64,000 nucleotides of DNA from an uncultured archaeon (GCA_964373255.1 CAYJTG010000002.1:30481-94480); one strand, 5' to 3'. Shown: positions 23,855 through 59,980, numbered from the stretch's first letter. Notes: generated by a model from the letters alone, not told the origin. Program-made: numbers and translations.

Positions 23855-24066
23855 AGCCCCAGGGGAGCATCGAACTCCCGACCTCCTGTTTTCTTGTTTC
23901 TTACTTGATTTTCTTTCTAAAAGAAAATCATACGAGACAGGTGCTTTCGGCTTTTTCTACCAATCTCCCCGATCCTTTCTAAATATTTGTGAAATCTATA
24001 GTTTCTTTGGGGTGAAACCTAGACCTTTCTTTACAAAGAAAGGGATCGGTGCTGAGCTACTGAGGC
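23855..24066 (-). tRNA. tRNA-Thr(CGU) with 2-3 introns (212 nt gene)
   Basis: Acceptor GCCTCAG/CTGGGGC (one G-U pair) and T arm GGGAG-TTCGATG-CTCCC. The anticodon arm is CCTGT-CTCGTA[40-nt intron]A-ACAGG. An 86-nt intron sits in the D loop after GCTCAGC. A possible 11-nt insert splits the D-stem 3' strand (GA|AAAAGCCGAAA|GC). The lengths add up: 75+86+11+40=212. Confidence 0.8.
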
Positions 24067-24261
24067 GTTTTGCTACTCTATTTCTCAATATTCACTATTA
24101 CTTTTTAAGCATTTCTTTTAAAGTAAATCAAACATTTCGCAAAAGAAGGTCTTGAATCCTCTATTTATGGTATATAAAGAATTTTTAAGGGGAGATAGTA
24201 CGGTAAGAAGAACAGACTGAAGTTGCTTTGCAACTTCTATGTATATGAGGTGTCTTGCGTT

Positions 24262-24552
24262 ATGAAAGAAGTATTTCTGGTAAAAACCGAGAACAAGCAG
24301 AAGGTTGAAGACCTGCTGAAAAAGGACGATGTTGTAAGCAGGGGCAGCATAACTATAAGGACGGCTGCATCCCTGGATATAAAGGAAGAAGGCTATTTTT
24401 TCATACTGGATATGCCCGAATCGTCGCTCAAAATAGCAGAGGGACTTACAAAAGGCATTGCTGAAAAATACAAACACGGAGAAAATATAATAAAAAAAGT
24501 CCAGGAACAGGAAGATTCTGCAATAGAAGGCTTCGGAAATATCCTGGGATAA
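24262..24552 (+). CDS. Hypothetical small protein
   Basis: ATG at 24262 (MKEVFLVKTENKQ...EDSAIEGFGNILG). No family was recognised. Confidence 0.45.
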   Translation: MKEVFLVKTENKQKVEDLLKKDDVVSRGSITIRTAASLDIKEEGYFFILDMPESSLKIAEGLTKGIAEKYKHGENIIKKVQEQEDSAIEGFGNILG

Positions 24553-24565
24553 TTATGGTGGCGCT

Positions 24566-25057
24566 ATGACTTCTGACATATTTGACAATTTGCCTGTGAG
24601 CTCTCTTGACAACTTTCACAAATTTCGCGAGTCGACTTACAATTTTCTCTATTTGTGCAAAGCTTGCGCACGCACCTTCGACTCTGAAAAGTCCATGGAA
24701 ACCTGCAAGTTCTGCGGCAATCCTGTGACAGAGCTGAGAAGCGTAAAAAGAAATAGAGAAGCCTTGAAGGACGGATTCAGAAAAAATATTCGATATAGAT
24801 ATTATTGTCCGACGTGCGAGAAAAATTTCGTAACGACGGAAAAGCTTGCGTTGTGCAATACGTGCCGGACAGACTACCTGCACGTTTATACGTGGGACCT
24901 GCTAAGAAAAAGGGACAGGCTCTACATAAAACTGAACAAAGCGCTGAAGACCGTATTTGAGAATAAGGCCAACAAAGCACAGACAAAGATAACTATAAAA
25001 CGCCCGGTATTTTCTGTTAATTTTTCGAGACCAAAAGAAGAGGTTCCTACTTTTTGA
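24566..25057 (+). CDS. Double zinc-ribbon protein
   Basis: Two CxxC...CxxC pairs are present: CKAC..CKFC and CPTC..CNTC. Confidence 0.55.
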   Translation: MTSDIFDNLPVSSLDNFHKFRESTYNFLYLCKACARTFDSEKSMETCKFCGNPVTELRSVKRNREALKDGFRKNIRYRYYCPTCEKNFVTTEKLALCNTCRTDYLHVYTWDLLRKRDRLYIKLNKALKTVFENKANKAQTKITIKRPVFSVNFSRPKEEVPTF

Positions 25058-25083
25058 TCAAATTTTTTCTAAAGAAGTTTGGA

Positions 25084-25173
25084 TGGGTCCGGGCGGATTC
25101 GAACCGCCGGCCTTCTGCACGTCAAGCAGACGTCATCTGTGGTCTTTGCAGATAACCACTAGACTACGGACCC
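25084..25173 (-). tRNA. tRNA-Val(GAC) with a 17-nt D-loop intron
   Basis: The gene reads GGGTCCG TA GTCT AGTGGTTAT[CTGCAAAGACCACAGAT]GAC G TCTGC-TTGACGT-GCAGA AGGCC GGCGG-TTCGAAT-CCGCC CGGACCC A. The intron forms an ATCTG/CAGAT helix. Confidence 0.85.
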
Positions 25174-25506
25174 TAGTTCTATTTTCATACCGATTCTTAT
25201 TTTTAAATCCGTATTTTTCAGTTCCAGGCAGTATTTTGCTTTCTTGTTTTTGTAAACTTTCCAGGTTTCTGGATTCAACGTAATTGGGACAGCTATCTCG
25301 TTTCCTACTATTCTCATTTTATCATCAAGAAATACCAGATTTAATTTTTTCTTTACAAAAGGCATCCATATAGAATTTGCATAAATCAAGGCACCGTCTT
25401 TATCTTCCAGCTTGTCAAACGTCAAGCCGCGCAAAGAAGAGGCTCCTTTGCAATCCTTTATTTTTAAAATCTTGTTATTTATCTTTAATGCTAGAAACGA
25501 CATCAT
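25159..25506 (-). CDS. DUF192-like protein
   Basis: ATG start. The stretch ..GLTFDKLEDKDGALIYANSIWMPFVKKKLNLVFLDDKMRIVG...YCLELK matches the DUF192 pattern (GL..r....gmlF....fwM.n...pLD..fld..g.i). The last ~15 nt overlap the tRNA-Val 5' end. Confidence 0.65.
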   Translation of the reverse strand: MMSFLALKINNKILKIKDCKGASSLRGLTFDKLEDKDGALIYANSIWMPFVKKKLNLVFLDDKMRIVGNEIAVPITLNPETWKVYKNKKAKYCLELKNTDLKIRIGMKIELGSVV

Positions 25507-25536
25507 AATAATTGTCTACAAAAGAATTAATTATAT

Positions 25537-25627
25537 AGTATCTCCGAAAGTGAGGTATACGCCTCTTGGCGTATACCTCGGTAGAGGATTACTGCCAACA
25601 GGCAGTAATCCAACTTTCGGAGATACT
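25537..25627. repeat. 91-nt three-way nested-hairpin element
   Basis: The outer stem is AGTATCTCCGAAAGT/ACTTTCGGAGATACT. It encloses GAGGTATACGCC-TCTT-GGCGTATACCTC and GGATTACTGCC-AACA-GGCAGTAATCC, all perfect. It sits 30 nt upstream of tRNA-Gly(CCC). Confidence 0.7.
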
Positions 25628-25657
25628 GTTATAGCTCTGTAGAAAACCTATGCAAGA

Positions 25658-25818
25658 GCATCTGTGATCTAGTGCACCTTTCCAGAAAGCTGCACCAAAG
25701 CGGTGAAAGGTGTGGATATTGGTATGATACAAGCTTCCCACAAGCTTTCCAGAAAGCTTGAGCAAAGCGGAAGGCTTGGAGTCAGCTTGATATGCGGGTT
25801 CGATTCCCGCCAGATGCA
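25658..25818 (+). tRNA. tRNA-Gly(CCC) with two introns (D loop ~45 nt; anticodon loop 43 nt)
   Basis: Acceptor GCATCTG/CAGATGC and T arm GCGGG-TTCGATT-CCCGC. The anticodon arm is CAAGC-TTCCCA[43 nt]A-GCTTG. The D arm is ATCT..GGTA TGAT. The two introns share TTTCCAGAAAGCT..AAAGCGG..AAGG. Confidence 0.75.
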
Positions 25819-25895
25819 TCAAGAAAACTGGAAGATGGTTGATCAAGAAAGGTGGAAAAAACTGATTATTAAAATATTGTATAGAAACTATTTGC

Positions 25896-28217
25896 ATGCA
25901 AATCGCTGATCTGCAACTGCACAGCAAGTACAGCCGCGCCACGTCTGGGAAGATGGTTCTCGACGAGCTTGCGAAGTACGCGAAGATCAAGGGCGTCGAT
26001 ATATTAGGCACAGGGGACTTCACACACCCAATTTGGCTGCAAGAGCTGAAGGGCAAATTAGCTGAAAAGAATGCAGGCGTTTACGAATACGACGACGTGA
26101 TGTTTGTTCTTACCGGTGAAATATCCCTGATTTATACGCAGGACGGCAGGCAGAGGCGCGTGCACCATGTAATATTAGCACCTAATTTCTCTGTGGTCGA
26201 CCAGATCAACGAGTGGCTGGACAAAAAAGGCCGCAGGGACTATGACGGCCGGCCTATCTTTGGATTCTCATCAATAGAATTTGTCGAAGCGATGATGTCC
26301 ATATCGAAAGATATAGAAATAATCCCCGCACATTGCTGGACTCCGTGGTACGGAATATTTGGGTCGATGTCAGGTTTCGATTCTCTGGAGGAATGCTTCC
26401 GCGAAAAGGCAAAATACATACACTGCATCGAGACAGGGATGTCTTGCTACGATACCGAGACAGAAGTGCTGACAAATAATGGATGGAAAAAAATCTCGAG
26501 TGTCGGACATTCCGATGAAATTTGTACTTTAGACATTAATACAAATAGAATTGAACTCCAGAAGCCAATTAAATTGTTTAAATATAGTTACAAGGGCAAG
26601 ATGTATAGGTTAAAGACCAAAAGAATTGATCTTTTGGTAACTCCTAACCATAAACTTCTATGTAGCCCTTGTGATTTTAGAAAAAACCCTTCTTTTTCTC
26701 TTAAAGAAGCAGAATTTTTATTTAACAAATCAAAGCGATTTAAGAAAGATGGTATTTGGATTGGTGACAATCCAGAATATTTTGTTATTCCGGCTGTCAA
26801 AATAAAGCATGGAAGCAGATTTTATTCTGGATTTCGAAATAAAGGTGAAAAAAAGTGTCCGATCAAGCCTTGGTTAAGATTCTTCGGTTTTTGGTTGGCA
26901 GAAGGCTGGGCAACAGAAAGCAAAAATGGTGACTATGGGATTTATCTTGCGAATTCGAATCCGGAGATAATTTCTGAGATGAAAAAAATTCTTGAAAGCT
27001 TCGACTACACGGTATATCAATATAAAAATAGAAGCATGGACACAATTAGAGTAAGAGATTATCAATTATTTTCTTATCTTAAACAATTTGGAAAAGCCTC
27101 CGAAAAATTTATTCCTTCAGACATAAAATCATTATCAAAAGAGTTCTTAGAAATCTTATTTGAATTTTACATAAAGGGTGATGGACATAGGTACGGTAGA
27201 AATGGGAAAGGTCTTTCGGCTACCACAATCTCAAAACGTCTTCGTGACGATCTGCAGGAAATCGCGCTAAAAATTGGTATTTCAGCATATTATAAATTGC
27301 ATAACAAGAAAGGTACACCAATTACTTCTCTTCCAAAAGCCAAACTAAAAGGCTATAAACAATCCGAAGATTCGTGGGTAATATATTTCATCAGAAATAA
27401 CATTCATACTGTTTTGCCTTCCACTATCAAGAAATATAATTACATCGAATCTTGGGTCGACTACGACGGTTTTGTATATTGCGTTGAAGTCCCAAACCAT
27501 GTAATTTACATTAGAAGAAATGGTATTCCTGTTTGGTGCGGAAACTCGAATCCTGCGATGAACTGGCGCATTTCTGCTTTGGACAACATCACTCTGACAA
27601 GCAACAGCGACGCGCACTCGCCGTACCCGTGGCGGCTTGGCCGGGAGGCCAATGTATTTGATTTCAAAGAAGTGAATTTTGAAAATATCATAAACGCGTT
27701 TCGTAACAGGAAGGATTTTGCTTACACGATTGAAACAAGCCCGAACTATGGAAAATATCATTATGACGGACACCGGGCGTGCAATTTCTCATGCTCGCCA
27801 GACGAGACAAAGAAGCTCAGTGACGTATGCCCGAAGTGCGGCAAAAAATTAGTTATAGGCGTGCTCAACAGAGTGGAACAACTTGCAGACCGTGATGAAG
27901 GGTTCGTACCAAAGGACGCGATCCCGTTCAGGACTCTGATACCTCTGAGCGAAGTCATCGCTGCCTTTCACGACACTGATGTGTTCACAAAAAAGGTGTG
28001 GGAAATTTACAACAGGCTGATCGACCGTTTTGGCGATGAATTCAATATCCTTCTTAATACGGAAAAAAACGAACTTGAAAAGACGATCGACGAAAAACTG
28101 GCGGCGCTCATAATAAAGAACCGCGAGAACAAGCTGCACGTCGAGCCTGGTTACGATGGTGTATACGGAAAATTAGTTGTCAAAGAGGAAACGGGATTGA
28201 GAAGATTTATAAAATGA
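25896..28217 (+). CDS. PHP-domain endonuclease Q-like protein (EndoQ family) interrupted by an intein
   Basis: The N-extein reads MQIADLQLHSKYSRATS...GTGDFTHP...HHVILAP...PAHCWTPW...ETGMS. The C-extein reads SNPAMNW...LTSNSDAHSPYPWRLGRE...GKYHYDGHRAC...CPKCGKK...PGYDGVYG. This gives PHP metal motifs, a Zn finger and a C-terminal domain, as in archaeal EndoQ. Confidence 0.75.
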   Translation: MQIADLQLHSKYSRATSGKMVLDELAKYAKIKGVDILGTGDFTHPIWLQELKGKLAEKNAGVYEYDDVMFVLTGEISLIYTQDGRQRRVHHVILAPNFSVVDQINEWLDKKGRRDYDGRPIFGFSSIEFVEAMMSISKDIEIIPAHCWTPWYGIFGSMSGFDSLEECFREKAKYIHCIETGMSCYDTETEVLTNNGWKKISSVGHSDEICTLDINTNRIELQKPIKLFKYSYKGKMYRLKTKRIDLLVTPNHKLLCSPCDFRKNPSFSLKEAEFLFNKSKRFKKDGIWIGDNPEYFVIPAVKIKHGSRFYSGFRNKGEKKCPIKPWLRFFGFWLAEGWATESKNGDYGIYLANSNPEIISEMKKILESFDYTVYQYKNRSMDTIRVRDYQLFSYLKQFGKASEKFIPSDIKSLSKEFLEILFEFYIKGDGHRYGRNGKGLSATTISKRLRDDLQEIALKIGISAYYKLHNKKGTPITSLPKAKLKGYKQSEDSWVIYFIRNNIHTVLPSTIKKYNYIESWVDYDGFVYCVEVPNHVIYIRRNGIPVWCGNSNPAMNWRISALDNITLTSNSDAHSPYPWRLGREANVFDFKEVNFENIINAFRNRKDFAYTIETSPNYGKYHYDGHRACNFSCSPDETKKLSDVCPKCGKKLVIGVLNRVEQLADRDEGFVPKDAIPFRTLIPLSEVIAAFHDTDVFTKKVWEIYNRLIDRFGDEFNILLNTEKNELEKTIDEKLAALIIKNRENKLHVEPGYDGVYGKLVVKEETGLRRFIK
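26445..27545 (+). mobile_element. Intein (367 aa) with LAGLIDADG homing-endonuclease domain
   Basis: Block A is CYDTETEVLTNNGW and block B is LLVTPNHKLL. The LAGLIDADG motifs are LRFFGFWLAEGWA and LEILFEFYIKGDGH. The C-terminus is VYCVEVPNHVIYI..GIPVWCGN followed by the +1 Ser. It is in frame (26445 and 27546 share the host frame) and visibly more AT-rich than the exteins. Confidence 0.85.
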
Positions 28218-28225
28218 ATGCCTTT

Positions 28226-36699: not shown

Positions 36700-39600
36700 T
36701 TACACGACCGTCGAAATACAGTCGGGATTTATATCGCTCACAAAACCTCTATGATAATAATCAAAATTAGTAATAATTGTATTTTCGCCTGCTATTCCAA
36801 GTCCTAATATATCGTTAGCTGTAACGTCGCTCATGTGCTGTGGAGTTAATTTGCTAGATATAGGCTTATAGCTCCAGTGCCAAGGTTCTGTTTTTACAAG
36901 CTTGTCCATATCGTAAGGCTGGCAGAAACCGTAATTTTTTGCATTTGTCTTCAGCCATTCGTAAACAGCTACCTGACACGCGTTCCCCACACATCCTTGC
37001 TGCCACTCAGCAGGATCCACAGAATTTATGTCTACCTCTGTTCCCCAGTGATGTCTTGATAATCCTGGAATAGCTGAATATTCTGCAACCTTGTTCACTT
37101 TTTCTTGTTCTGTGCCTTGTGCAGATGCGAATTTGCTGTTCCATATGCCCAACTGGTCAGTAAACGAACGGTAGCCTGATACTATTACAAAATCGAACCC
37201 TGCCTGTTTTGCAGCAGTTTTCATTGAGTCGAATGCCACCTGGACTTCTGGTTTAAGTCCTGTAAGTATCCCACGTCCCATCAAGTCGGGGTTCTTGGCT
37301 ATTACAGGTGGCAATCCACTATATATGCTGTCAATCAGCGTTCTAAACCTGCTTACGTCCTGTCCCTTAACGTTATCGACATAATTTTTATCGCCTACAG
37401 AGCAGTCGGTATTCCAGCCGTTGTAATACCTGTAAATAGCGTCCCAGCCGCTGTATGAAATGCTGAGACACGTATACAATTTTGCCGGATCGTTTGCGTA
37501 ATCTGTTTTTAGATTAAGGATGTAGTTCACGCCCAGGAATATGTTACAGTCCAAATCGTATGGAAGCTCGCCGTTGCAGCCGTTTGATGATGTGTCGTAC
37601 CACGAAGGATGCGCGACCTGGTTGAGCTGGAATACGCCATAGCCCTTTCCATCGGATGCGCCCAAAACATTGTCTTGGTTCGTGTTCCCGCAGTTAAGCG
37701 TTCCGTCTTTGCAGTGCCTCAGTCCTGATTCCTGAGCTGCTATTTTTAGTATGTTCTCCGCCTCGTTCTTGTCAAAGCCTGCTTCCTTGGCCTGCCTGAT
37801 TATTTTTTCTGCAATATCTCCTGAAAATCGCGTGAACGTTAGTGTTATTCTGTCTGCTGGCGCTGACTCGCATCTTTGTACAGGTATGCCGCGCTCATTC
37901 ACGGCATTTGCATTCCACTTACAAGTCAATTTGCATGCCGCATCTTCTCCTTCGCATGAATTTTCGTTCGGAAACATTGAACACGATCTTACGCCTTCTA
38001 GTCCGCACGAATGGCACACATTACCAACCAATCTCCGCGGTGTGTTCGTAGCTGATTCAAAGGGATCTAATGTTATCTCCCCAGAATACCAGCACTTATT
38101 AGAACCTTCTGAAAAACTATGACATTCATCTGCATCACAGATATTTGTACGACCATCGCCACATTTATTGCACACCTTCTCAAACGGGTCGTATAGAATG
38201 CCCAATCGCGGCGTCACGGGCACGTCCTTTGTCTGCTCCAAGCGGAAGATGTAGCGCGGGAGCTCGGCTGTGATGAAGCTCGACGTGACTGTATTTATTT
38301 CTGTATCGGGCTGGGTTGCGAATTCGCAGATAAAGCCATAGATGGAATTGAACTCGAACGGAAGGACCTCGACTGCGTTCTGGCCTTCCTGTGGCAGTAT
38401 CTCATAAGCAATGGTATCAAAGCCTTCTTTGTAGTACGGATTATTTGGTGCTGCGCGTACTGCCTGCTCGCCGCAGCGCAGGCTGTCGAGCACAGCAATT
38501 TCATGAGGAACACGAATTATGACCTTTGTGCCCCTTGGCAGGACAACCTTGCTTTTATCGCGCGTATTTGATATTGACACAAGCAGCAAAGCGCCCTGGC
38601 CTGTTTGCAACGGCTGCGGCCCGACATTCAGCGACAGCCGCGCAGGCGTGCCCTTGTCGACGGCAAGTACGGGCTTGAACACGGCCTGCCCTTCGCGGAA
38701 CAATCTTTGCAATTCCTGGCTGTTTATCACGCTTACCTGCAGCGAGGAATTTGTCGCGTATGCATAGCTCACGTTGAAGTTTATCTTTGCAAAGTTCGTC
38801 AATCCTCTCTGCTGAGGGAAAAACGATGCTGCCAAAGACTTCACGGTAATTATCTCGCCTGTGCCGCGCGGAAGGTTATCTTTTATATAGAATAACCTGC
38901 CGTTTTTTATGTCGCTGATAATCTTATCCCCAGCAATCCCGTATCTTTCTTTCAGCTCGTTCAGCCTTGCGTCATCCTCAATAGGCACTGGCGAAGTTAG
39001 TTGCACAGATCTTGAGTTACACCACTGGTTGGTGCAGTCGACAGAAACCAAAACGTCTTTTGCGTCCAGAATGCCGTCGTTCTTTATTATAGCCGCCAGC
39101 GCGAATTCCTGGCCGCTTGGCACAGACGGCGGCAGGGCCTCTAAGCTCGCTAATTCAATGCCTTTCGGAAAGTCCAATGGCCGTTCGGGCCTGACGTTGA
39201 CCAACTGCTGCCGTGCGTACCATTCTGTCGGGTTCGTAGCAAGCAGCCAGACGTCTGTTATGGCATTAGACGCGTATCTGTACGCCAGCTCGACAGGCGC
39301 CTTGACCTGGCCGACTGCCTGGTGGAAATATGCGCTGTACGGGCCGAACGCCAGGTAAGAAAGCAGAAGTATGATTATTCCGCCCTGTAGCACGATCTTC
39401 CATCCGCCGTGCTGGTAGAACTGGAAGAGCCCTATGAACCCAAGTATTGCCCACCAGATCCAGAAGCCGGTACTCCCCACGCCATTCATGCCTATGAATC
39501 CCCAATTCTCTGCGCCGAACGCCAGCAAGAAGAGGGCAGCACTGTACCCCATGATTGCTCCTGATGACAGATGTGTTACCCAGTCCAGTGGCTGGAATGA

Positions 39601-42114
39601 ATCTGAGAAATTGAGCAGGAACGTAAATCCAGCGCCTATAATGGGCATCATCCACAGGATCTGGACGTTGTAGCCCACAAACGTGAGCGTGAAGAAGAAC
39701 AAAAGAAGCGTGAACAGCGTTGTTATCGTCCACGGCCCGAATATGAACTGGAAGATGTTGTAAAGTATGTTCGTGCCGGCTGCTCCGCCTGTCTCCAGAG
39801 CGTTGGATGTTATACCAAGACCGCGCATGAATGCATGTCGCATTGTTCGGCCGCGCAGGACAAACTTCTGGGCTATATCGGTTGCATATCCATCTAATGC
39901 AGTTCCCAAGTCAACCTCGTCCGCAGAACCTATAGGCATGCGGTACCTGCGTGCAATACTGACCATTAGAGTTTTTGCCATGTTTTTGAGATAATTTTCA
40001 AGCTCTGCTGCGGCTGATTCTACTCGTTCTGTATAGTCTTTATCTAGAGAGTCACGTGCCTTAATAAAAAGTTCAAGATTTTGTCGTGCTGTGCTTAATG
40101 CATCCAGCATTGCCGGATCATTTCCTGAACTTGTGAGTTGTTCGATAAGAGTACTAGCACCATTTAATAGATCGTTATCTCCCCGTATCTGCCGTCGGCC
40201 AAGGCCTGTTGCTTGTCTGTTTTGTCTTATCATTCTTCTTAGATTTCGCCTAGCTGTTGTTGAGGCTTCTCTTAATTGCTCAGTTTGTTCTCTTCTTGTT
40301 TCGAACTCTGCATTAAGCGGATTAAATATGCTCGAATATTTTGCTCTTGCATATCTGTTCAACATTCTTTTGCCCCTGTTTATGGCTGCAAGCAGATATG
40401 GGTCGCGCTTTAATTCACGCCTTTCAACATCCGTAAGACCTCCTTTGATCCTTTCTCTAACACCTCGTGTCCCTACTGCCGCAGCAGCAGCTCCACGGAT
40501 TCCTCCCTGACTGAGAGGAGACCCTGTCTGATATCGAGCAGCCTGGCCTGGTCTGCGAGTCTTGTCAATACTGGCTTCCTTGTGGTAGAAAGCAACGAGC
40601 TTTACATTGCTTGCGAGATCTATTTCGAGTGTAGGATCCCAATGTGTAACGACATTGTTGCGCACAGATCTTACAAGTCTCTCTTCCTCTGGTTTTGTAG
40701 GATTGTGCATTCTTATGTCGTACATATTTCCAAGGTTTGGAGCTCCCTCGCCCGAATAAGTGATTTCCCAATGATGGAATTTGGCACCAGCAGCTTCTGT
40801 GTCAGCCTTGAAACGATATTTTTGAGGTCCTATATTTAGTGCAGTTCCAGGTAAGCTGAGATAGAAGATCGTGTATGTATTTCTCTCGACAATTTTGTCG
40901 TCAAGGCCCGCCGACTCTAAACCTATGCCGTAATAAGTGCCTCCAAATACTTCTCTGTACCGGGGCGTGAGCCTATCACCTTCTGCTTTTGTTGCCAGAT
41001 ATTGTGTTGTGCGCGCAAGGCTGAAAGGAACTGGACCTTCTGCATCCAAAGAGTCCGATCGCCATTTATCTAAAGTAATCCACTTGGGTTCTCCTCCGTA
41101 ATAAGTATCTAAAATAAGTTTCGTTAAATCTTCATCAGTTATTCCGACTCTTGACAATATTCCTAACAAAGCAACCTCAGCCGCAGCTCTATCTGGATAT
41201 GGACCACTGTTTGCGAATGCCGTAGCTCCTCGCATAGCATGTGATACGCTAGGATGATTTGTATCCACACCGAGGGCAGTCGCATAATTTTTTGGCTTTA
41301 AGGTGCCATGCATTCTGGTAGTGGTTTTTACTTCAACATTTACATGTACCTCTTGCATAGGAGCAGAATCTACCGTGACCATAAAACGAGGCCGTTGTGG
41401 TGGTGTAGGTGGTGGAGGCGGTGGGGGTTCTGGAAATCTTCTTTCTGGATATCGTATTGCAAGCGGATAGGGACCTCTTCTTGCTAGCGGATACTTGCCC
41501 TTTGTTCCTTCTGTTAATTGCTTTGGCGCTTCCCGTCTCTGGTACGGTTGCATATTAGCAGCTGTCACAGGGCCTGCCCGGGCTTCTGGCAGTCTTAATG
41601 GCTCTTGATGCGCTGGCAACAACGCTATGGGTTGCCGACCTGCTGTGAGACGTTTTGCTTCTTCGTGTGCAGGCAACATTAATGGTTCTTCCTGCCTCTG
41701 GTACGGCTCCATGTTAGCAGGTGTCATAGGGCCTGCCCGGGCTTCTGGCAGCTGCCTTGGCGCTCTTGCGTATCTTTGCTGCGCCAGATACTCGGAAGGC
41801 ACGATCATAATTTTTTTGTATGTTATCGGCTTGTCGCCCGCTTTTGTAGAATATAAAGCAGCATAATATTCGTCTTTTTCTTGGATAACTTTTACGCGAT
41901 CTATCGGGTATTTTGTATCGCGCTTGGGTTCGCCGAAAACGACGCCCTCGTCCTCTGTGCCTGGCTGACCGACCCTTACAGGCACGACCTTCATGTTCTT
42001 GCCAAGTATGCCCTTTTCTGGATTTAATTCTTCTGCTACCCGGAAGCCCATTTTAGCCAGGTGCTTAAGCAAAGTCAGGCTCTCTATGGCTGTTAATTCT
42101 TTATCGTCTGCCAT
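36700..42114 (-). CDS. Giant polytopic membrane protein with C-terminal lytic transglycosylase and M15 (VanY-like) peptidase domains
   Basis: The track ORF starts at GTG 42123 and the ATG is at 42114 (MADDKEL). See the sub-features for domain evidence. The order is a ~780-aa cytoplasmic region, a ~6-TM block, two beta-rich modules related to the lipobox paralogs, a Cys-rich region, SLT and then M15. Confidence 0.9.
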   Translation of the reverse strand: MADDKELTAIESLTLLKHLAKMGFRVAEELNPEKGILGKNMKVVPVRVGQPGTEDEGVVFGEPKRDTKYPIDRVKVIQEKDEYYAALYSTKAGDKPITYKKIMIVPSEYLAQQRYARAPRQLPEARAGPMTPANMEPYQRQEEPLMLPAHEEAKRLTAGRQPIALLPAHQEPLRLPEARAGPVTAANMQPYQRREAPKQLTEGTKGKYPLARRGPYPLAIRYPERRFPEPPPPPPPTPPQRPRFMVTVDSAPMQEVHVNVEVKTTTRMHGTLKPKNYATALGVDTNHPSVSHAMRGATAFANSGPYPDRAAAEVALLGILSRVGITDEDLTKLILDTYYGGEPKWITLDKWRSDSLDAEGPVPFSLARTTQYLATKAEGDRLTPRYREVFGGTYYGIGLESAGLDDKIVERNTYTIFYLSLPGTALNIGPQKYRFKADTEAAGAKFHHWEITYSGEGAPNLGNMYDIRMHNPTKPEEERLVRSVRNNVVTHWDPTLEIDLASNVKLVAFYHKEASIDKTRRPGQAARYQTGSPLSQGGIRGAAAAAVGTRGVRERIKGGLTDVERRELKRDPYLLAAINRGKRMLNRYARAKYSSIFNPLNAEFETRREQTEQLREASTTARRNLRRMIRQNRQATGLGRRQIRGDNDLLNGASTLIEQLTSSGNDPAMLDALSTARQNLELFIKARDSLDKDYTERVESAAAELENYLKNMAKTLMVSIARRYRMPIGSADEVDLGTALDGYATDIAQKFVLRGRTMRHAFMRGLGITSNALETGGAAGTNILYNIFQFIFGPWTITTLFTLLLFFFTLTFVGYNVQILWMMPIIGAGFTFLLNFSDSFQPLDWVTHLSSGAIMGYSAALFLLAFGAENWGFIGMNGVGSTGFWIWWAILGFIGLFQFYQHGGWKIVLQGGIIILLLSYLAFGPYSAYFHQAVGQVKAPVELAYRYASNAITDVWLLATNPTEWYARQQLVNVRPERPLDFPKGIELASLEALPPSVPSGQEFALAAIIKNDGILDAKDVLVSVDCTNQWCNSRSVQLTSPVPIEDDARLNELKERYGIAGDKIISDIKNGRLFYIKDNLPRGTGEIITVKSLAASFFPQQRGLTNFAKINFNVSYAYATNSSLQVSVINSQELQRLFREGQAVFKPVLAVDKGTPARLSLNVGPQPLQTGQGALLLVSISNTRDKSKVVLPRGTKVIIRVPHEIAVLDSLRCGEQAVRAAPNNPYYKEGFDTIAYEILPQEGQNAVEVLPFEFNSIYGFICEFATQPDTEINTVTSSFITAELPRYIFRLEQTKDVPVTPRLGILYDPFEKVCNKCGDGRTNICDADECHSFSEGSNKCWYSGEITLDPFESATNTPRRLVGNVCHSCGLEGVRSCSMFPNENSCEGEDAACKLTCKWNANAVNERGIPVQRCESAPADRITLTFTRFSGDIAEKIIRQAKEAGFDKNEAENILKIAAQESGLRHCKDGTLNCGNTNQDNVLGASDGKGYGVFQLNQVAHPSWYDTSSNGCNGELPYDLDCNIFLGVNYILNLKTDYANDPAKLYTCLSISYSGWDAIYRYYNGWNTDCSVGDKNYVDNVKGQDVSRFRTLIDSIYSGLPPVIAKNPDLMGRGILTGLKPEVQVAFDSMKTAAKQAGFDFVIVSGYRSFTDQLGIWNSKFASAQGTEQEKVNKVAEYSAIPGLSRHHWGTEVDINSVDPAEWQQGCVGNACQVAVYEWLKTNAKNYGFCQPYDMDKLVKTEPWHWSYKPISSKLTPQHMSDVTANDILGLGIAGENTIITNFDYYHRGFVSDINPDCISTVV
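36859..37281 (-). other. M15/VanY-type (LAS) zinc peptidase domain
   Basis: IVSGYRSFTDQ is followed by SRHHWGTEVD (the S-x-H-x-x-G-x-x-x-D zinc motif at 37030-37059) and then EPWHW (E-x-x-H). YGFCQPY lies between them. All three metal ligands are present. Confidence 0.85.
37399..37821 (-). other. Family-1 lytic transglycosylase (SLT) domain
   Basis: IAAQESGLRH (catalytic E-S, nt 37713-37740), GYGVFQLN (GLMQ-equivalent) and RYYNGWN (AYNAG-equivalent) occur in the canonical order and spacing. Confidence 0.8.
39319..39771 (-). other. Hydrophobic block of about six TM helices
   Basis: ILYNIFQFIFGPWTITTLFTLLLFFFTLTFVGY...IILLLSYLAFGPYSAYF. Confidence 0.8.
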
Positions 42115-45404: not shown

Positions 45405-45410
45405 TACCAA

Positions 45411-45472
45411 TCCCTTTTCTTAAAAGAAAAGGTCTAGGTTTTATCCCAAAAGAATGGGGGTTCTTCTAGACC
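45411..45472. repeat. Intergenic copy of a tRNA-intron-like sequence
   Basis: TCCCTTTTCTTAAAAGAAAAGGTCTAGGTTTTATCCCAAAAGAA compares with the tRNA-Thr D-loop intron TCCCTTTCTTTGTAAAGAAAGGTCTAGGTTTCACCCCAAAGAAA (about 80% identity over ~44 nt by eye). Confidence 0.75.
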
Positions 45473-45593
45473 TTGTCTTCAAAAATTATTGTGAGTCTAT
45501 ACCATATTATTTTATTTTGATACAACGTTGTAATGTAACTACTTTACAGTAAATATATACCATAAGCTTTAAAAAGGTTTGGTTTAGCAACTT

Positions 45594-46792: not shown

Positions 46793-47082
46793 TGCGAGGG
46801 GGCGGATTCGAACCGCCGAACGGACTAACCGACAAGATAGCTCAAACGGTCATATAATAATCGTTTGCTAATAAATCGATTTCTTGAGTTTCACAGTCAT
46901 CTAAGCTTCTTTAGAAAAGAAGCTTAATCAAGAAACTTCTTTTCTTTCAACGCTTATCTTAACTCAATGACACTTGCGCCTTTGACCAGATTTCCATACC
47001 TTCTCTTCATAATACAGCTTTACCATAATTTCTTTTGGTATAGCTTTTCTTTTGAAAGAAAAGGTATCTTGGCTACCCTCGC
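46793..47082 (-). tRNA. Class II tRNA, probable tRNA-Leu(CAA), with three introns (290-nt gene)
   Basis: The 5' part is GCGAGGG TA GCC AAG[77 nt]TCTGGTCAAA GGC G CAAG[83 nt]. Next come ACTCAAGA[44 nt]TCTTG and T CGGTTAGTCCG TTC. The 3' part is GGCGG-TTCGAAT-CCGCC CCCTCGC A. The lengths add up (86+204=290). The isotype depends on an 8-nt micro-exon. Confidence 0.7.
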
Positions 47083-47785: not shown

Positions 47786-47932
47786 TGCGGTAGCCGGGAT
47801 TCGAACCCGAATCGCAACCTTGGCAAGGTTGTATCCTACCATTATCCATTTTCTTGGTTCTGTTGGTTCTTTTGGTTCTGTTGGTTCTTTTGATTAAACT
47901 TTTCTTCCAAGAAAAGTTTAGACTACTACCGC
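47786..47932 (-). tRNA. tRNA-Gly(GCC) with a ~75-nt D-loop intron
   Basis: Acceptor GCGGTAG/CTACCGC. The D arm is GTCT AA[intron]TGGTA GGAT. The anticodon arm is CAACC-TTGCCAA-GGTTG and the T arm TCGGG-TTCGAAT-CCCGG. The intron contains a tandem 18-nt repeat. Confidence 0.8.
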
Positions 47933-49619: not shown

Positions 49620-49779
49620 GCCGGCGTAGTCTAACCTGGTAAGTCGCTAGTCTCGAAAACTAGTGCCCTTCGGGGCTTGCAGGTTCAAAGCCGAGGAAGG
49701 ATATCCTTCCTAAGGCATTACCATCCTTAGGTGGGCTCCGCAGATATTATCTGACTCGGGGGAATTCCTGCCGCCGGCG
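49620..49779 (+). tRNA. tRNA-Ser(CGA) with a 76-nt T-loop intron
   Basis: Acceptor GCCGGCG/CGCCGGC with discriminator G. The anticodon arm is CTAGT-CTCGAAA-ACTAG and the long variable arm is TGCCCTTCGGGGCTT. The T arm is GCAGG-TTCAAA[76 nt]T-CCTGC. Confidence 0.8.
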
Positions 49780-49847: not shown

Positions 49848-49972
49848 GCCGGCTTGGCAGAACTAGGTAAATGCACGTGCCTTGAGTAAATTTTTTAGAA
49901 AAAAGTTTAATCAAAAAACAAGGTCAGCACGAGTGGCTCCGCCACACGCAGGTTCAAATCCTGCAGCCGGCG
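49848..49972 (+). tRNA. tRNA-Ser(UGA) with a 39-nt canonical (37/38) intron
   Basis: Acceptor GCCGGCT/AGCCGGC. The anticodon arm is CGTGC-CTTGAG[39 nt]A-GCACG. The variable arm is AGTGGCTCCGCCACAC and the T arm GCAGG-TTCAAAT-CCTGC. The lengths add up (86+39=125). Confidence 0.85.
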
Positions 49973-54470: not shown

Positions 54471-54689
54471 CGCTCCCGGCGCGAATATCGACAAATCTCT
54501 GTTCTTTTTTTCCTTTTCTTTAGGACATACAAAGACCTTTCTTTTTGGAAAAGAAAGGGATTTGTTTTCGAACGCGCGACCCCTTGCTTTCACACTTGAC
54601 GGAGTCATCATTTCGCAGCAAAGCTGCGATCTGTTCACCTCCGTGTCAAGTAGGAGGCAAGTGCTCTATCCAAACTGAGCTACGGAAGC
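54471..54689 (-). tRNA. tRNA-Arg(CCU) with two introns (62 nt at 37/38; 82 nt in the T loop)
   Basis: The 5' part is GCTTCCG TA GCTC AGTTTGGATA GAGC A. The anticodon arm is CTTGC-CTCCTA[62]A-GCAAG, followed by GGGTC. The T arm is GCGCG-TTCGAA[82]T-CGCGC, followed by CGGGAGC G. The lengths add up (75+144=219). Confidence 0.8.
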
Positions 54690-57511: not shown

Positions 57512-58786
57512 TTACTTTATCAATTTCTTCACTTCTTCAAGATCATTAAGATTGACCTCGGTTTCCTGGCCGGTCTTCATGTTCCTTAGTTTTGCCTTTC
57601 CGGATTTGAGCTCTTTCTCGCCGAGAACAATCACATACGGAACGCCTTTAGAGTTAGCGTAATCCAATTCCTTGCTCAATGATCGTTTCATGAGATCGAA
57701 TTCAGTCGGCACGCCGAGAGAAATGAGACTTCTTGCCAGCATTATTGCCTCTTTTACAGCCGTGTCGACAACAGGCGCTATGTAGATCTTCGTGTTTGTC
57801 TTTTCTGTTTTGATCAGTTTCTTTCCATCCAATGCAAGGATAAGTCTGTCGATGCCAAAAGATATGCCCGTGGCAAGAGTAGGCTTGCCGCCGAAACTTT
57901 CTATAAGATTGTCGTAACGGCCGCCGCCCCCAACGCTGACATCCAGGCCGGCATTTATCTCAAAAACCGGCCCTGTATAATATTCCAGACCGCGCACCAG
58001 GCTGATGTCAAACTTGACAAAGTCTGAAAAGCCAAAATTATCTATGTAATCGAGTATCGTTTCCAGCTCCTGAACGCCCTGTTTTCCGAGCTCTTCCTTC
58101 TCGACAATTTTTTTAACATCCGGCAATTTCCTTATTTTTACGAAATCCATTATCTTCTTTATCTTCTCGTTCGCTACGCCTTTTTCTTTCAGCTCTTTTC
58201 CGACGTTGTTTTCGCCTATCTTTTCCAGCTTATCAATGCTGCGCATGACATCAATAACTTCTTTTTTCAGACCTATAGAAATAAGAAACGCTTCGACAAT
58301 TTTTCTGTTGTTGATTCGTATAAAGAAATCAGTAAACCCCAGCGATCGCATCGAATCGCAAGCGACTGCTACGCACAATGCATCGGCTTCGCCTGCAGGA
58401 GCGCCCACAACGTCTACGTCGGCCTGCCAGAACTCTCTGTAACGACCGGATCCGGGCCGGTCGTATCGCCACACAGGGCCATACTGGTATCTGCGGAATG
58501 GCTTCGGTAATTGTGGATTGTTGACAATCACCCTTGCCAGCGGAACAGTAAAATCGAACCGTAGACCAAGCTCGCGATCAGATTTGTCCTTGAAATAATA
58601 TATTTCATTCTTGATCTCGTCTCCGCCCTTTGCCGCCAAGAGCTTCCAGTCCTCAAAGGCGGGCGTCTGCAATGGGTCGAAGCACCATTTCTCGAAAATA
58701 GAAATAATCCTGTTCAAGACGTACTGCCGTTTGATCATGTCCTCTGGCAGAAAATCGCGCGTTCCACGGGGTGGTTGGTATTCCAT
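57512..58786 (-). CDS. hisS: Histidyl-tRNA synthetase
   Basis: The ATG at 58786 gives MEYQPPRGTRDFLPED. The motif-2-like stretch is RRYQYGPVWRYDRPGSGRYREFWQADVD. GGGGRYDNL and a C-terminal anticodon-binding domain follow. Confidence 0.92.
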   Translation of the reverse strand: MEYQPPRGTRDFLPEDMIKRQYVLNRIISIFEKWCFDPLQTPAFEDWKLLAAKGGDEIKNEIYYFKDKSDRELGLRFDFTVPLARVIVNNPQLPKPFRRYQYGPVWRYDRPGSGRYREFWQADVDVVGAPAGEADALCVAVACDSMRSLGFTDFFIRINNRKIVEAFLISIGLKKEVIDVMRSIDKLEKIGENNVGKELKEKGVANEKIKKIMDFVKIRKLPDVKKIVEKEELGKQGVQELETILDYIDNFGFSDFVKFDISLVRGLEYYTGPVFEINAGLDVSVGGGGRYDNLIESFGGKPTLATGISFGIDRLILALDGKKLIKTEKTNTKIYIAPVVDTAVKEAIMLARSLISLGVPTEFDLMKRSLSKELDYANSKGVPYVIVLGEKELKSGKAKLRNMKTGQETEVNLNDLEEVKKLIK

Positions 58787-58855
58787 ATTTATCAACTTCT
58801 TTTACTTATTTTCTATCCTTAAAATCATTAAAATGTGGGACGTACTTCAGCATAT

Positions 58856-58949
58856 TGTAAACCCAGTAAATAATCAGGTATTATAACTGGGTTTACATAT
58901 AGCGAACAACAAAAGTAATATGTCCAAAATCTTTTGTTGATTCGCTATA
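58856..58949. repeat. Two adjacent nested perfect hairpins; the first shares a 24-nt motif with 49811-49834
   Basis: The first hairpin is TGTAAACCCAGT..ACTGGGTTTACA. The second is TATAGCGAA-CAACAAAAG..CTTTTGTTG-ATTCGCTATA. TGTAAACCCA(G/C)TAAATAATCAGG also lies upstream of tRNA-Ser(UGA). Confidence 0.65.
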
Positions 58950-58975
58950 AAAGGTTTTTGCCTTAATTAATTAAA

Positions 58976-59134
58976 ATGGCAGGCGGCAGTTATCTTAGAT
59001 TTTTCATCGGGCTGATTCTCTCGCTATCCGTACTAATATCCTTTTTCTCAGGTGACAGAACTACACCCGTTTCTGCGATACTGTCAATTCTTTTCCTCAT
59101 TCTCGCTGTGCTCTGGGCTATTTTCAGGTTTTAA
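58976..59134 (+). CDS. Small two-TM membrane peptide (52 aa)
   Basis: It falls below the track cutoff. Sequence MAGGSYLRFFIGLILSLSVLISFF...ILSILFLILAVLWAIFRF. Confidence 0.3.
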   Translation: MAGGSYLRFFIGLILSLSVLISFFSGDRTTPVSAILSILFLILAVLWAIFRF

Positions 59135-59146
59135 TAGATTTCTGTT

Positions 59147-59560
59147 ATGGTAAAAATCATGATGAACGAATCAGATTTTTATACGTTAGATTCCGACACT
59201 GAAACTGATACCATACTAGAAGAAATACCAAAAGGTGCGGAAGTGAGCACTAGCCAAGAAGGCACAAGAATAGACGCCTACCGAAGCCATGGGAATAGCC
59301 TATATAGCGTTGCTTTTTACGAGCTTGAGAGGGAAGAGCATATGAGAAATAAACTCGGAATAGCTCCAGAACTAACCATAGCGATTCCGGGAATACCTTT
59401 CAATGAAACAGAGAATAAATTCAGGTCAAAGGCACAGTACAAAATAGGATTGCGGAGCAGAAAAGATGAAGTGGAATATATTGTAGACATATTTGAGTTT
59501 TATCAGAAAAGGCTTGTTGGTGACATCATCGAGGAAATAAAAAAGGAATTTATGTCGTGA
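59147..59560 (+). CDS. Hypothetical protein (137 aa)
   Basis: ATG start and tight spacing to the downstream parvulin gene. No motif was recognised. Confidence 0.5.
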   Translation: MVKIMMNESDFYTLDSDTETDTILEEIPKGAEVSTSQEGTRIDAYRSHGNSLYSVAFYELEREEHMRNKLGIAPELTIAIPGIPFNETENKFRSKAQYKIGLRSRKDEVEYIVDIFEFYQKRLVGDIIEEIKKEFMS

Positions 59561-59564
59561 TTTT

Positions 59565-59840
59565 ATGCCGTCAAAAATACGCTGCTCTCATATTCTTGTA
59601 AAGACAGAGCAAGAGGCATTGGAAATTCTGGAAGACCTGCACAATGGAGTTAGCTTTGCCGCTTTAGCAGAGATGAAGTCGCAATGCCCGTCGCGTAAGA
59701 AAGGCGGGGACCTTGGTGTTTTTGGCCATGGGCAAATGGTCAAGCCGTTCGAGAAGGCTGCGTTTGCACTGGAGGTTGGCAAGATTTCCGGCCATGTCAA
59801 GACCGAGTTCGGCTGGCATATTATTAAGAGGACTGGATAA
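59565..59840 (+). CDS. Parvulin-type peptidyl-prolyl cis-trans isomerase (PpiC domain)
   Basis: CSHILV...CPSRKKGGDLGVFGHGQMVKPFEKAAFAL..G.IS..VKTEFGWHIIKR is the single-domain archaeal parvulin pattern. Confidence 0.85.
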   Translation: MPSKIRCSHILVKTEQEALEILEDLHNGVSFAALAEMKSQCPSRKKGGDLGVFGHGQMVKPFEKAAFALEVGKISGHVKTEFGWHIIKRTG

Positions 59841-59847
59841 ATAAAAG

Positions 59848-59980
59848 GGCTGGTATCGGGATTTGAACCCGACCGAAAGGATCCACAGTCCTGTACATCA
59901 GAATCTATTAACAGAATCTGTTTATGCTACCACTATAGCTATCTGTCTATGTGGCAAATAGCAGCTACATCATACCAGCC
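59848..59980 (-). tRNA. tRNA-His(GUG) with encoded G-1 and two introns (32 nt D loop; 29 nt in the 5' anticodon stem)
   Basis: G-1 precedes acceptor GCTGGTA/TACCAGC, with discriminator C opposite G-1. The D arm is ATGT AG[32]TGGTA GCAT. The anticodon arm is AA[29]AGGA-CTGTGGA-TCCTT and the T arm TCGGG-TTCAAAT-CCCGA. The lengths add up (72+61=133). Confidence 0.8.

Follow-up and report, generated by a model that had tools for sequence, protein, structure and literature searches.

Nine interrupted tRNA genes in 64 kb of an Aenigmatarchaeota genome: short, mostly non-canonical introns and a shared hairpin module

In the 64-kb stretch of archaeal DNA analysed here (the window), all of the tRNA genes (9/9) are interrupted, with a total of 16 inserts of 11-88 nt. 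Removal of these 16 segments yields a canonical cloverleaf, with a 7-nt anticodon loop, for Thr-CGU, Val-GAC, Gly-CCC, Leu-CAA, Gly-GCC, Ser-CGA, Ser-UGA, Arg-CCU and His-GUG, and ARAGORN recognises each of the nine as a tRNA once spliced (scores of 113-123), with the anticodons originally proposed. The exons retain the conserved features of the D-, anticodon- and T-loops as well as intact 7-bp acceptor stems in every case. These are very probably nine functional tRNA genes of an Aenigmatarchaeota archaeon, whose precursors would contain one to three short introns spliced at bulge-helix-bulge motifs. The original prediction, that all nine genes form a cloverleaf only after removal of 15-16 mostly non-canonical introns, is confirmed, with the count now at 16, of which 11 lie at non-canonical positions: 15/16, 16/17 (four introns), 20a/21, 22/23, 27/28, 30/31 and 59/60 (two introns).

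Standard searches mostly miss these genes in unspliced form. Default ARAGORN finds 0 tRNAs in the unspliced window, and Rfam at gathering score recovers only tRNA-Val (25084-25173, minus strand; 59.9 bits, with the D-loop insert read as 19 nt) and tRNA-Ser(UGA) (49848-49972, plus strand; 46.1 bits, with the anticodon-loop insert read as 42 nt), whereas all nine are called once spliced, as the original prediction would have it. A scan for a T-arm plus a 7-bp acceptor, run also in a form that allows the T-loop to be split, recovers 9/9 genes at the coordinates and lengths first assigned to them; no further T-arm or 5' half was found in the window, and no intact tRNA was found within the 64 kb. 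The inserts have no ribozyme core and no ORF, and at E ≤ 10 Rfam gives no match to a group I or group II intron anywhere in the window. A split or permuted arrangement was rejected for these genes, as the exons of every gene are colinear, within 90-290 nt. When the solutions of a blind motif-plus-cloverleaf search were ranked by ARAGORN score and compared with the curated solutions, the curated one came first in only 4 genes, tied for His and was second of two for Ser-CGA, while those for Gly-CCC and Leu ranked low and that for Arg was missed. Curation thus contributes part of the basis for the intron models.

Junctions placed solely by the cloverleaf coincide with the archaeal splicing motif far more often than neighbouring offset positions, which served as the null. 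The central 4-bp helix (H) of the 3-4-3 bulge-helix-bulge is perfect (4/4) in 9/16 introns versus 3.1% in the null (binomial p = 2e-10) and reaches at least 3/4 in 15/16 introns versus 17.7% (binomial p = 7e-11), with exactly 3/4 in 6 introns. The canonical intron of tRNA-Arg has an H of only 2/4, and in the minimum-energy fold its 5' splice site is hidden within a helix; as modelled, it is the one doubtful case for the motif. An inner helix is lacking in the 11-nt intron of tRNA-Thr and, in strict register, in the third Thr intron and the Ser-UGA intron. Some introns contain T5-T6 runs resembling archaeal termination signals.

The gene for tRNA-Thr(CGU) (23855..24066, minus strand, 212 nt; ARAGORN 120.1 spliced) has exons at 24066-24051, 23962-23957, 23945-23931 and 23890-23855, which would form a mature tRNA of 73 nt, and three introns. 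Intron 1 (23963..24050), at D-loop position 16/17, carries the full hairpin module described below (H 3/4, h' 7 bp) and scores 64.5 bits with the module model, this copy being part of the training set; it is 88 nt long and not 86 nt as first proposed, while the lengths of the other two were correct. Intron 2 (23946..23956) is an 11-nt mini-intron of the bulge-helix-loop type in the D-stem at 22/23, with an H of 4/4 (TGGT/GCCG) and no h' helix, and is absent in the Thr-CGU orthologues L071 and L116. Intron 3 (23891..23930, 40 nt), at the canonical 37/38 (H 3/4, h 5 bp), has only the pyrimidine/purine hairpin of the module and partially matches its model. tRNA-Val(GAC) (25084..25173, minus strand, 90 nt; ARAGORN 122.2) contains a single 17-nt intron (25137-25153) in the D-loop at 20a/21 (H 4/4, h 2, h' 3), and tRNA-Gly(CCC) (25658..25818, plus strand, 161 nt) contains two with strict motifs: one of 45 nt at 16/17 (25674-25718; H 4/4, h' 8 bp) and one of 43 nt at 37/38 (25741-25783; H 4/4, h' 9 bp).

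The three introns of tRNA-Leu(CAA) (46793..47082, minus strand, 290 nt) have the anticipated lengths of 77 nt (46991-47067, at 15/16), 83 nt (46890-46972, at 30/31) and 44 nt (46839-46882), the third now placed at the canonical 37/38; intron 1 matches the module model from outside the training set (24.8 bits, E = 0.0017). So does the one intron of tRNA-Gly(GCC) (47786..47932, minus strand, 147 nt; model score 21.6 bits, E = 0.0087), a D-loop intron as expected, refined from about 75 to 74 nt (47843-47916, at 16/17; H 4/4, h' 9 bp). Two serine genes on the plus strand have one intron each: that of tRNA-Ser(CGA) (49620..49779, 160 nt) lies in the T-loop at 59/60 (49690-49765, 76 nt; H 3/4, h 5, h' 5) and that of tRNA-Ser(UGA) (49848..49972, 125 nt) at 37/38 (49887-49925, 39 nt; H 3/4, h 5). 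tRNA-Arg(CCU) (54471..54689, minus strand, 219 nt) has a canonical 62-nt intron at 37/38 (54589-54650) and an 82-nt T-loop intron at 59/60 with the full module (54485-54566), so that the two T-loop introns indeed occupy the identical site. Finally, tRNA-His(GUG), with G-1 (59848..59980, minus strand, 133 nt), has a D-loop intron at 16/17 (59932-59963) and a 29-nt intron (59893-59921). The latter, formerly assigned to the anticodon stem, is placed at 27/28; the former may be 32, 30 or 28 nt long, these being nested registers that all fit the splicing motif, and the 30-nt register gives a D-loop AGCTTGGTA, as in the AR5 orthologue.

The closest relatives of the IleRS in the window are from Aenigmatarchaeota MAGs, at 71% identity and below, and by this measure the host is an Aenigmatarchaeota (DPANN) archaeon. 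Membership in Thermoproteales was rejected on the same ground, leaving, of the proposal that the genome belongs to or converges on that class, the convergence. In related Aenigmatarchaeota loci, 20/24 tRNA genes are also interrupted; the 9/9 rate stands, but not as an oddity of the window. Syntenic tRNA-His, tRNA-Arg and tRNA-Thr genes of the relatives have the same exons, with introns that are missing, different or differently placed. The tRNA-His adjoining IleRS is intronless in L002 (AR5), L011 and L012, while L005 has exons identical to those of L002 with a D-loop intron added, and the remaining loci have different introns. In the alignment of tRNA-Arg(CCU) from the window with four orthologues, no exon column varies; the window alone has the 82-nt T-loop insert, and an insert at 8/9 occurs only in L002 and L016. 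At the tRNA-Thr(CGU) locus, syntenic with Yip1 and zinc-ribbon genes, the module sits at 16/17 in the window, at 37/38 in L116 (a junction read by eye, as the automatic search gave a wrong solution there) and in the T-loop in L107 (by eye); Thr-CGU genes with the module at 37/38 are also found in L071 (predicted, H 4/4) and L087 (by eye). Orthologues with the same exons and no inserts, together with the bulge-helix-bulge at the junctions, bear out the original assignment to archaeal endonuclease-type introns.

Several introns in the window resemble one another closely. Local-alignment z-scores identify the two Gly-CCC introns as paralogues (z = 12.4) and pair the Gly-GCC intron with that of Ser-UGA (z = 8.8) and Thr intron 1 with Arg intron 2 (z = 7.8). 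What is new here is a conserved hairpin module as the base of several of these introns, consisting of a covarying 4-bp helix, an invariant AUC/UCU internal loop, a 9-bp pyrimidine/purine helix (CCUUUYYUU/AARRAAAGG) and then a CCCCAAAGAA box. Across an alignment of 85 copies, 96.5% of cells are paired, and covariation is 0.350 versus 0.135 in shuffled alignments (reached in 0/500 shuffles) and at most 0.139 with the partners slid. In the window the module model matches 4 introns, each in a different gene, at three positions (15/16, 16/17 and 59/60), of which Leu intron 1 and the Gly-GCC intron were outside its training set; it also finds a D-loop intron in AR5, and metagenomes contain more than 120 copies, including D-, anticodon- and T-loop introns. 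Copies in tRNA introns carry an inverted repeat of their own 5' end at the terminus. Judged by these similarities, introns are homologous across tRNA species and insertion sites and bear a transposition-like signature of the kind known from Thermoproteales.

We infer the actual splicing of the introns, the type of enzyme and the mechanism of spread from sequence. Each gene would be transcribed as a precursor with one to three short introns, and each intron-exon junction would fold into a strict or relaxed bulge-helix-bulge, with two 3-nt bulges around a 4-bp helix, within which EndA, the archaeal tRNA splicing endonuclease, would cut before an RtcB-type ligase joins the exons. As 11/16 introns lie outside 37/38 and several motifs are relaxed, the enzyme would need broad substrate specificity. 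No EndA or RtcB gene was found in the 64-kb window with Pfam, and tblastn of the window gave no match to the EndA of M. jannaschii, whose use as a query had been validated on PDB 1a79. The intron set is probably evolutionarily dynamic, with many introns derived from one module-based family that may have moved from one tRNA to another and among sites in the D-, anticodon- and T-loops.

Could the nine loci instead be pseudogenes broken by a small MITE-like repeat, with functional intact copies elsewhere in the genome? The module common to several inserts is also found outside tRNA genes, direct repeats flank some of its metagenome copies (L047, L074, L119 and L123), and a Logan contig from the same genome as the window stops inside a copy, as is often seen with repeats. 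Like MITE- or REP-like elements, the module is a hairpin repeat that is short, strongly conserved and present many times in a community, with an inverted-repeat end in its tRNA-intron copies, some direct repeats and assembly breaks within a copy. Unlike them, its tRNA copies are embedded in a splicing motif, others keep a fixed distance of 4-5 nt from start codons, and we found no link to a transposase. The intact exons, with conserved loops and 7-bp acceptor stems, the placement of inserts in splicing-competent motifs far beyond chance, the nine different isoacceptors affected with 0 intact tRNAs in 64 kb, and the syntenic single-copy orthologues that are likewise interrupted, at other places, make such decay very unlikely. 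Chimeric joins or other assembly artefacts, conceivable in a metagenome contig in which repeated modules can mislead assemblers, have a negligible probability: independent Logan assemblies from four runs are 100% identical across the left end of the window, and one of these runs also has a contig identical over the right end, including tRNA-His and both introns. For tRNA-His, the identical sequence is that of L044, an independent Logan assembly. Genes built in this way are found again in many independent genomes and metagenomes, and precise splicing motifs are not expected from an artefact.

Somewhat less improbable, and still unlikely, is that some inserts are kept, the 11-nt Thr and 17-nt Val inserts as expanded D-arms, or that some long inserts provide a terminator and a promoter such that exons are transcribed separately and joined in trans, as in cis-adjacent split genes. 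The Val gene still scores 59.9 bits in Rfam with its insert in place, the 11-nt Thr insert has no inner helix, and T-runs and TTTAAT-like boxes in introns are similar to the A/T boxes upstream of tRNA genes. The motif of the Val insert is nevertheless strict (H 4/4, h 2, h' 3), the Thr mini-insert, with all 4 bp of its helix formed in the correct register, is absent in Thr-CGU orthologues, and an insert left in place would disturb the D-stem or D-loop. The spacing of the A/T boxes is not consistent, and splicing in cis is the simpler account of exons that lie side by side in colinear order.

The intron of tRNA-Arg(CCU) at the canonical position contains a D'-hairpin-C'-like motif (CAGA/CUGA ... 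RUGAUGA). Its core, GGAGGTGAAC(A/C)GA-hairpin-RATGATGA, is kept with covarying stems in 5 Aenigmatarchaeota genomes, a sample of five sequences only, and a stretch conserved in the five, GGAGGUGA, could pair with nt 28-35 of the tRNA in which the intron lies. The window's 62-nt version shows a single evident box pair. The N+5 rule predicts nucleotide 31 as the target and, to our knowledge, position 31 is not a known methylation site. In Euryarchaeota, the intron of tRNA-Trp contains a box C/D guide RNA; the C/D-like boxes and the complementary stretch in the Arg-CCU intron may be a counterpart, in a different tRNA.

Archaeal introns at 20/21, 22/23, 30/31 and 59/60, with a maximum of three per gene, are already known (PMC4090602, PMC4033280), and in Thermoproteales tRNA genes with several introns occur and introns have transposed on a large scale (Sugahara 2008; Fujishima 2010; both as reviewed in PMC4033280, PMC4090602), with more than half of the genes containing multiple introns in extreme cases (PMC4033280, PMC4090602). 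The window shares with Thermoproteales up to three bulge-helix-bulge introns per gene, these same sites, and similar intron sequences in different tRNAs and positions. It differs in lineage, Aenigmatarchaeota (DPANN) rather than Crenarchaeota, in the dominance of D-loop sites 15/16-16/17, and in a structured module with a covarying helix that is shared among introns and also lies next to housekeeping start codons, for which we found no description in Thermoproteales. In this trait the small-genome archaeon of the window resembles Thermoproteales. Small genomes with non-canonical and multiple tRNA introns are also shared with DPANN that have broad-specificity enzymes, the epsilon2 EndA of ARMAN (PMC3239211, PMC3488258) and the alpha4 form with an L3 loop (PMC5829648). 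DPANN lineages with an EndA insertion loop have more disrupted tRNA genes, in an analysis whose genomes did not include Aenigmatarchaeota (PMC5829648). As in other DPANN, standard tRNA finders miss many genes; split or permuted genes were not seen in the window.

The module also occurs outside any tRNA. A free-standing copy at 45405..45495 (plus strand; 67.1 bits, in the training set) lies 5 nt from the start codon (45404-45402) of an ORF on the opposite strand, and about 25-29 metagenome copies are arranged likewise, with the module 4-5 nt from the start codons of ribosomal-protein and RNA-polymerase genes. This fixed distance suggests function rather than random insertion. We tentatively raise the possibility that the intron core is an undescribed, widespread structured element of Aenigmatarchaeota, and perhaps other DPANN, with a double life as splicing cassette and start-codon element. 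With an inverted copy of its own 5' end beside it, the module would be a self-contained, position-independent splicing cassette that may have moved among the D-, anticodon- and T-loops of tRNA genes, while alone it would abut, always 4-5 nt away, the start codons of translation and transcription genes with high expression. If true, mobile tRNA introns of archaea would be connected with an element of gene expression or with a site bound by a protein or RNase, which may act as a leader hairpin, as a promoter-proximal element or as a site of processing from which leaderless mRNAs arise.

ARAGORN, which the original prediction proposed as a check, reports no tRNA gene in the 64 kb of the window under default settings, and a blank default run is thus unusable as a negative test for tRNA genes of this kind. 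At the gathering score, Rfam recovers tRNA-Val at 25084-25173 (-), with a D-loop insert of 19 nt, and tRNA-Ser(UGA) at 49848-49972 (+), with an anticodon-loop insert of 42 nt; the 3' part of tRNA-Gly(GCC) is a third, partial match under threshold. We then looked for T-arms with a 3' acceptor strand behind them whose 5' partner, paired 7/7, lies at most 400 nt away; a second version of the scan tolerated a split T-loop. The two scans combined yield exactly nine genes, the same nine and of the same lengths as originally predicted, and no additional T-arm or tRNA 5' half was found in the window. With the internal segments removed, ARAGORN calls all nine (scores of 113-123).

These genes contain 16 introns, 11 of which lie away from the canonical site (37/38). 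Three are found in tRNA-Thr(CGU) (88 nt at 16/17, 11 nt at 22/23, and 40 nt at 37/38) and in tRNA-Leu(CAA) (77 nt at 15/16, 83 nt at 30/31, and 44 nt at 37/38), and two each in tRNA-Gly(CCC) (45 nt at 16/17 and 43 nt at 37/38), tRNA-Arg(CCU) (62 nt at 37/38 and 82 nt at 59/60), and tRNA-His(GUG) (32, or 30 or 28, nt at 16/17 and 29 nt at 27/28), with single introns in tRNA-Val(GAC) (17 nt at 20a/21), tRNA-Gly(GCC) (74 nt at 16/17), tRNA-Ser(CGA) (76 nt at 59/60), and tRNA-Ser(UGA) (39 nt at 37/38). The predicted predominance of non-canonical positions therefore holds, as does the identical site of the two T-loop introns (59/60 in Ser-CGA and Arg-CCU), and nearly all of the predicted intron lengths stand, a few being off by a few nt (the Thr D-loop intron is 88 rather than 86 nt and the Gly-GCC intron 74 rather than about 75 nt). 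Minor deviations tolerated by ARAGORN are a U11:U24 mismatch in the D-stem of tRNA-Ser(CGA) (49629-49644 (+)) and U13:U22 in the D-stems of Val and Gly-CCC.

The original prediction had also made the introns depend on bulge-helix-bulge motifs, and such motifs are present. With junctions set by the cloverleaf alone and a 3-4-3 geometry cleaved after nucleotide 2 of each 3-nt bulge, all 4 pairs of the central helix form in 9 of the 16 introns and at least 3 of the 4 in 15, compared with 3.1% and 17.7% of 4,417 neighbouring offset positions (p = 2e-10 and 7e-11, respectively). An inner helix of 3-12 bp is present too in most introns. The canonical Arg intron is weak, with 2 of 4 central pairs and a 5' site buried in the minimum-energy fold, the 11-nt Thr intron takes a helix-plus-loop form resembling a bulge-helix-loop, and in strict register the inner helix is absent from Thr intron 3 and from the Ser-UGA intron. 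In a blind search with relaxed motifs, a cloverleaf filter, and solutions sorted by ARAGORN score, the curated solution comes out on top for Thr, Val, Gly-GCC, and Ser-UGA, is tied among three nested registers for His, and takes the lower of two places for Ser-CGA. It falls well down the list for Gly-CCC and Leu, the ARAGORN score alone favouring spurious three-intron solutions, and Arg is missed because one of its introns has only the two central pairs. Intron models were thus chosen by motif quality, parsimony, and orthologues, and are curated rather than fully automatic. Comparison of tRNA upstream regions with introns for a common promoter box gave only loose A/T boxes with inconsistent spacing.

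The nearest relatives of the IleRS at 60136-62970 (+) come from Aenigmatarchaeota MAGs, with identities of 71% (a Lac Pavin MAG) and 64% (GW2011_AR5, hereafter AR5), and by this protein sequence the host is a DPANN archaeon and not a member of the Thermoproteales. The proposal that the genome belongs to or converges on a Thermoproteales-like class consequently survives only in its second part: membership is contradicted, while the intron pattern is a resembling one, with homologous introns across genes and positions. The rate of 9/9, which had been thought unusual, is typical of the phylum, since related loci have 20 of their 24 tRNA genes interrupted. The window also encodes very large ORFs of 2687 aa (9458-17521 (-)), 1807 aa (36700-42123 (-)), and 1483 aa (2536-6987 (-)), and a 910-aa protein with an S-layer domain (18019-20751 (-)), all four probably surface proteins; an ORF beside tRNA-Gly(CCC) (25896-28217 (+), 773 aa) contains an intein with a LAGLIDADG domain.

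Orthologous genes differ in which introns they carry and where. The HisRS gene (57512-58795 (-)), tRNA-His (59848-59980 (-)), and the IleRS gene are adjacent, and the tRNA-His/IleRS neighbourhood is kept in several Aenigmatarchaeota loci. This syntenic tRNA-His is intronless in AR5 and in the related loci L011 and L012, has a D-loop intron added to exons identical to those of AR5 in L005, two introns in L013, a canonical intron in L003, L010, and L016, and a 61-nt D-loop intron in L018. When tRNA-Arg(CCU) of the window is aligned with four orthologues, the exon columns are invariant and the canonical intron occurs in all five genes; the 82-nt T-loop insert is found in the window only, and an insert at 8/9 in AR5 and L016 only. 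In tRNA-Thr(CGU), syntenic with Yip1 and zinc-ribbon genes, we observe one conserved hairpin core, hereafter the module, at three positions: in the window at 16/17 of the D-loop, in the metagenome locus L116 at 37/38 with the D-arm uninterrupted (junction set by eye, the automatic solution being wrong), and in L107 in the T-loop (by eye) with the anticodon arm uninterrupted. The Thr-CGU genes of two further loci have it at 37/38, namely those of L071 (predicted, with 4 of 4 central pairs) and L087 (by eye).

Introns of different genes and positions are homologous, as judged by local alignment of Gly-CCC introns 1 and 2 (z = 12.4), the Gly-GCC and Ser-UGA introns (z = 8.8), and Thr intron 1 and Arg intron 2 (z = 7.8). 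The Gly-GCC intron (47843-47916 (-)) contains two copies of an 18-nt tandem duplication, AACCAACAGAACCAAAAG, and has an identical 16-nt stretch (the AAAGTTTAATCAAAAG region) in common with the Ser-UGA intron. The window has 8 occurrences of a pyrimidine/purine hairpin, CTTTTCTT...AAGAAAAG, 6 of them within tRNA introns, which make up 2.4% of bases. A seventh copy (45405-45495 (+)) lies outside the tRNAs, and its homology to Thr intron 1 and Arg intron 2 starts at the equivalent of intron position 1. At least 120 metagenome contigs match the core pattern of 23 specified bases. A blastn-short search of the introns against related loci gave mostly low-complexity noise except for one copy in L001 (5793-5848 (-)).

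An alignment of 85 copies resolves the structure of the module. An outer helix of 4 bp, in which the 4 nt preceding ATC pair with the 4 nt that follow TCT, leads into an invariant internal loop (AUC/UCU), an inner 9-bp helix (CCUUUYYUU/AARRAAAGG), a variable loop, and (A)CCCCAAAGAA. Compensatory changes occur at all four outer-helix pairs, 96.5% of cells are paired, and the covariation score of 0.350 is reached by none of 500 shuffles (0.135) and exceeds that of slid partners (at most 0.139). A covariance model built from this alignment, with three window copies in its training set, picks up two further window introns, scoring Leu intron 1 at 24.8 bits (E = 0.0017) and that of Gly-GCC at 21.6 bits (E = 0.0087). 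In AR5 it matches the intron in the D-loop of a tRNA-Val gene that has several introns (43.6 bits). This gene of the published AR5 genome (about 21490-21680 (-), GGGCTTGTAGTCTAGT|ACAGATCCC...), on which ARAGORN is silent, has further inserts and probably a T-loop intron (TTCGAA|AGCTGT). The model also finds a truncated copy (6956-6985) about 2.9 kb right of the window on L044, an independent Logan contig of the same genome; that this contig ends inside the module hairpin suggests that the repeat breaks short-read assemblies. The established taxonomic range of the module comprises the window genome, a Lac Pavin MAG, and AR5. No Rfam family matches at the module places, and a literature search turned up nothing specific on the module or on Aenigmatarchaeota tRNA introns.

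The module occurs in two contexts. Among 82 distinct metagenome copies, assigned approximately by flank patterns and reading by eye, 17 lie in T-loops, 12 in D-loops, and at least 7 in anticodon loops (by eye; Met-CAU, Thr-CGU, and Cys-GCA), and about 25-29 lie 4-5 nt from a start codon, with the gene on the opposite strand. The free-standing copies in the window (45405-45495 (+)) and in L001 share this arrangement, the metagenome ones being among loci L045-L124. The adjoining genes include S12, S17e, S3Ae, aIF5A, RpoD, Rrp41, and SBDS by Pfam, and others that, from their N-termini alone, look like RpoA', L39e, L40e, and aEF-1beta. In tRNA copies, the intron ends in (A)AAGGGAT plus the complement of the 4 nt preceding ATC, an inverted repeat of the intron 5' end that supplies the splicing motif with its long inner helix, in competition with the local 4-bp helix. 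In gene-adjoining copies, another conserved hairpin and a CCTTGTCTTCAAtATTA box take the place of the inverted repeat; candidate roles there are as leader hairpin or processing site, as protein-binding site, or as small mobile repeat. Direct repeats of 12-21 nt flank some copies (L047, L074, L119, and L123; e.g., ATGCGTATTCGCGCCAAGTAT in L119), and in L047 the 5' part of a tRNA is duplicated and followed by a Gly-CCC-type intron, which may reflect the mode of insertion or partial tRNA genes in tandem.

Some introns carry features reminiscent of box C/D RNAs. The canonical intron of tRNA-Arg(CCU) keeps a core in five Aenigmatarchaeota genomes (window 54589-54650 (-); AR5 3144-3352; L003 2053-2228; L016 3819-3958; L010 86-201) that consists of GGAGGTGAAC(A/C)GA, a hairpin with covarying stems, and RATGATGA, and resembles a D'-hairpin-C' motif of the K-turn, box C/D-like kind. 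Within this intron, GGAGGUGA is complementary to nt 28-35 of its own tRNA. Fibrillarin and Nop5 genes lie immediately right of the window (L044 5143-6737). In the Leu-CAA gene of a relative, L022 (19342-19607 (-)), a 141-nt D-arm intron with GUGAUGA ... CUGA ... CUGA could represent a complete box C/D RNA in a non-canonical intron position.

By analogy with archaeal tRNA splicing (PMC5829648, PMC4090602), the splicing endonuclease EndA would cut in both bulges and RtcB would join the exons, and the many non-canonical and relaxed sites would require an enzyme of broad specificity. Such specificity in DPANN archaea has been associated with either alpha4 enzymes carrying an L3 loop or the epsilon2 type (PMC5829648, PMC4090602). 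A tblastn search with the M. jannaschii enzyme found no EndA in the window, related loci, or metagenome loci, a weak match in L085 being rejected as it lacks the catalytic signature, and a Pfam scan of 29 window ORFs found no splicing endonuclease and no RtcB. The comparative pattern would be explained by a cassette-like intron that is repeatedly gained, lost, and relocated, the same pattern as the "intron transposition" of Thermoproteales (PMC4033280).

Alternatively, the interrupted loci could be pseudogenes with intact copies elsewhere in the genome, but this is unlikely given that the exons are intact, the motifs precise, nine isoacceptors affected, and syntenic orthologues interrupted too. 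Retention of short inserts or separate transcription of exons is possible in individual cases and is not the simplest reading. For practical purposes an assembly artefact can be dismissed: the left end of the window recurs with 100% identity in Logan contigs of four sequencing runs, and a further contig from one of these runs matches the right end, including tRNA-His with both introns. The organism occurs in runs ERR4904390-92 and ERR3478686.

Introns that differ between orthologues extend the rapid proliferation of non-canonical tRNA introns known from Thermoproteales to a DPANN lineage, which bears on how intron load and the specificity of the endonuclease evolve together. Seven of the nine genes are missed by standard tRNA finders, and unless searches are intron-aware, inferences of completeness and codon usage will be wrong for Aenigmatarchaeota and similar DPANN genomes. 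Found at varied positions in orthologous tRNAs and also beside the start codons of housekeeping genes, the module offers a testable handle on how archaeal tRNA introns spread.
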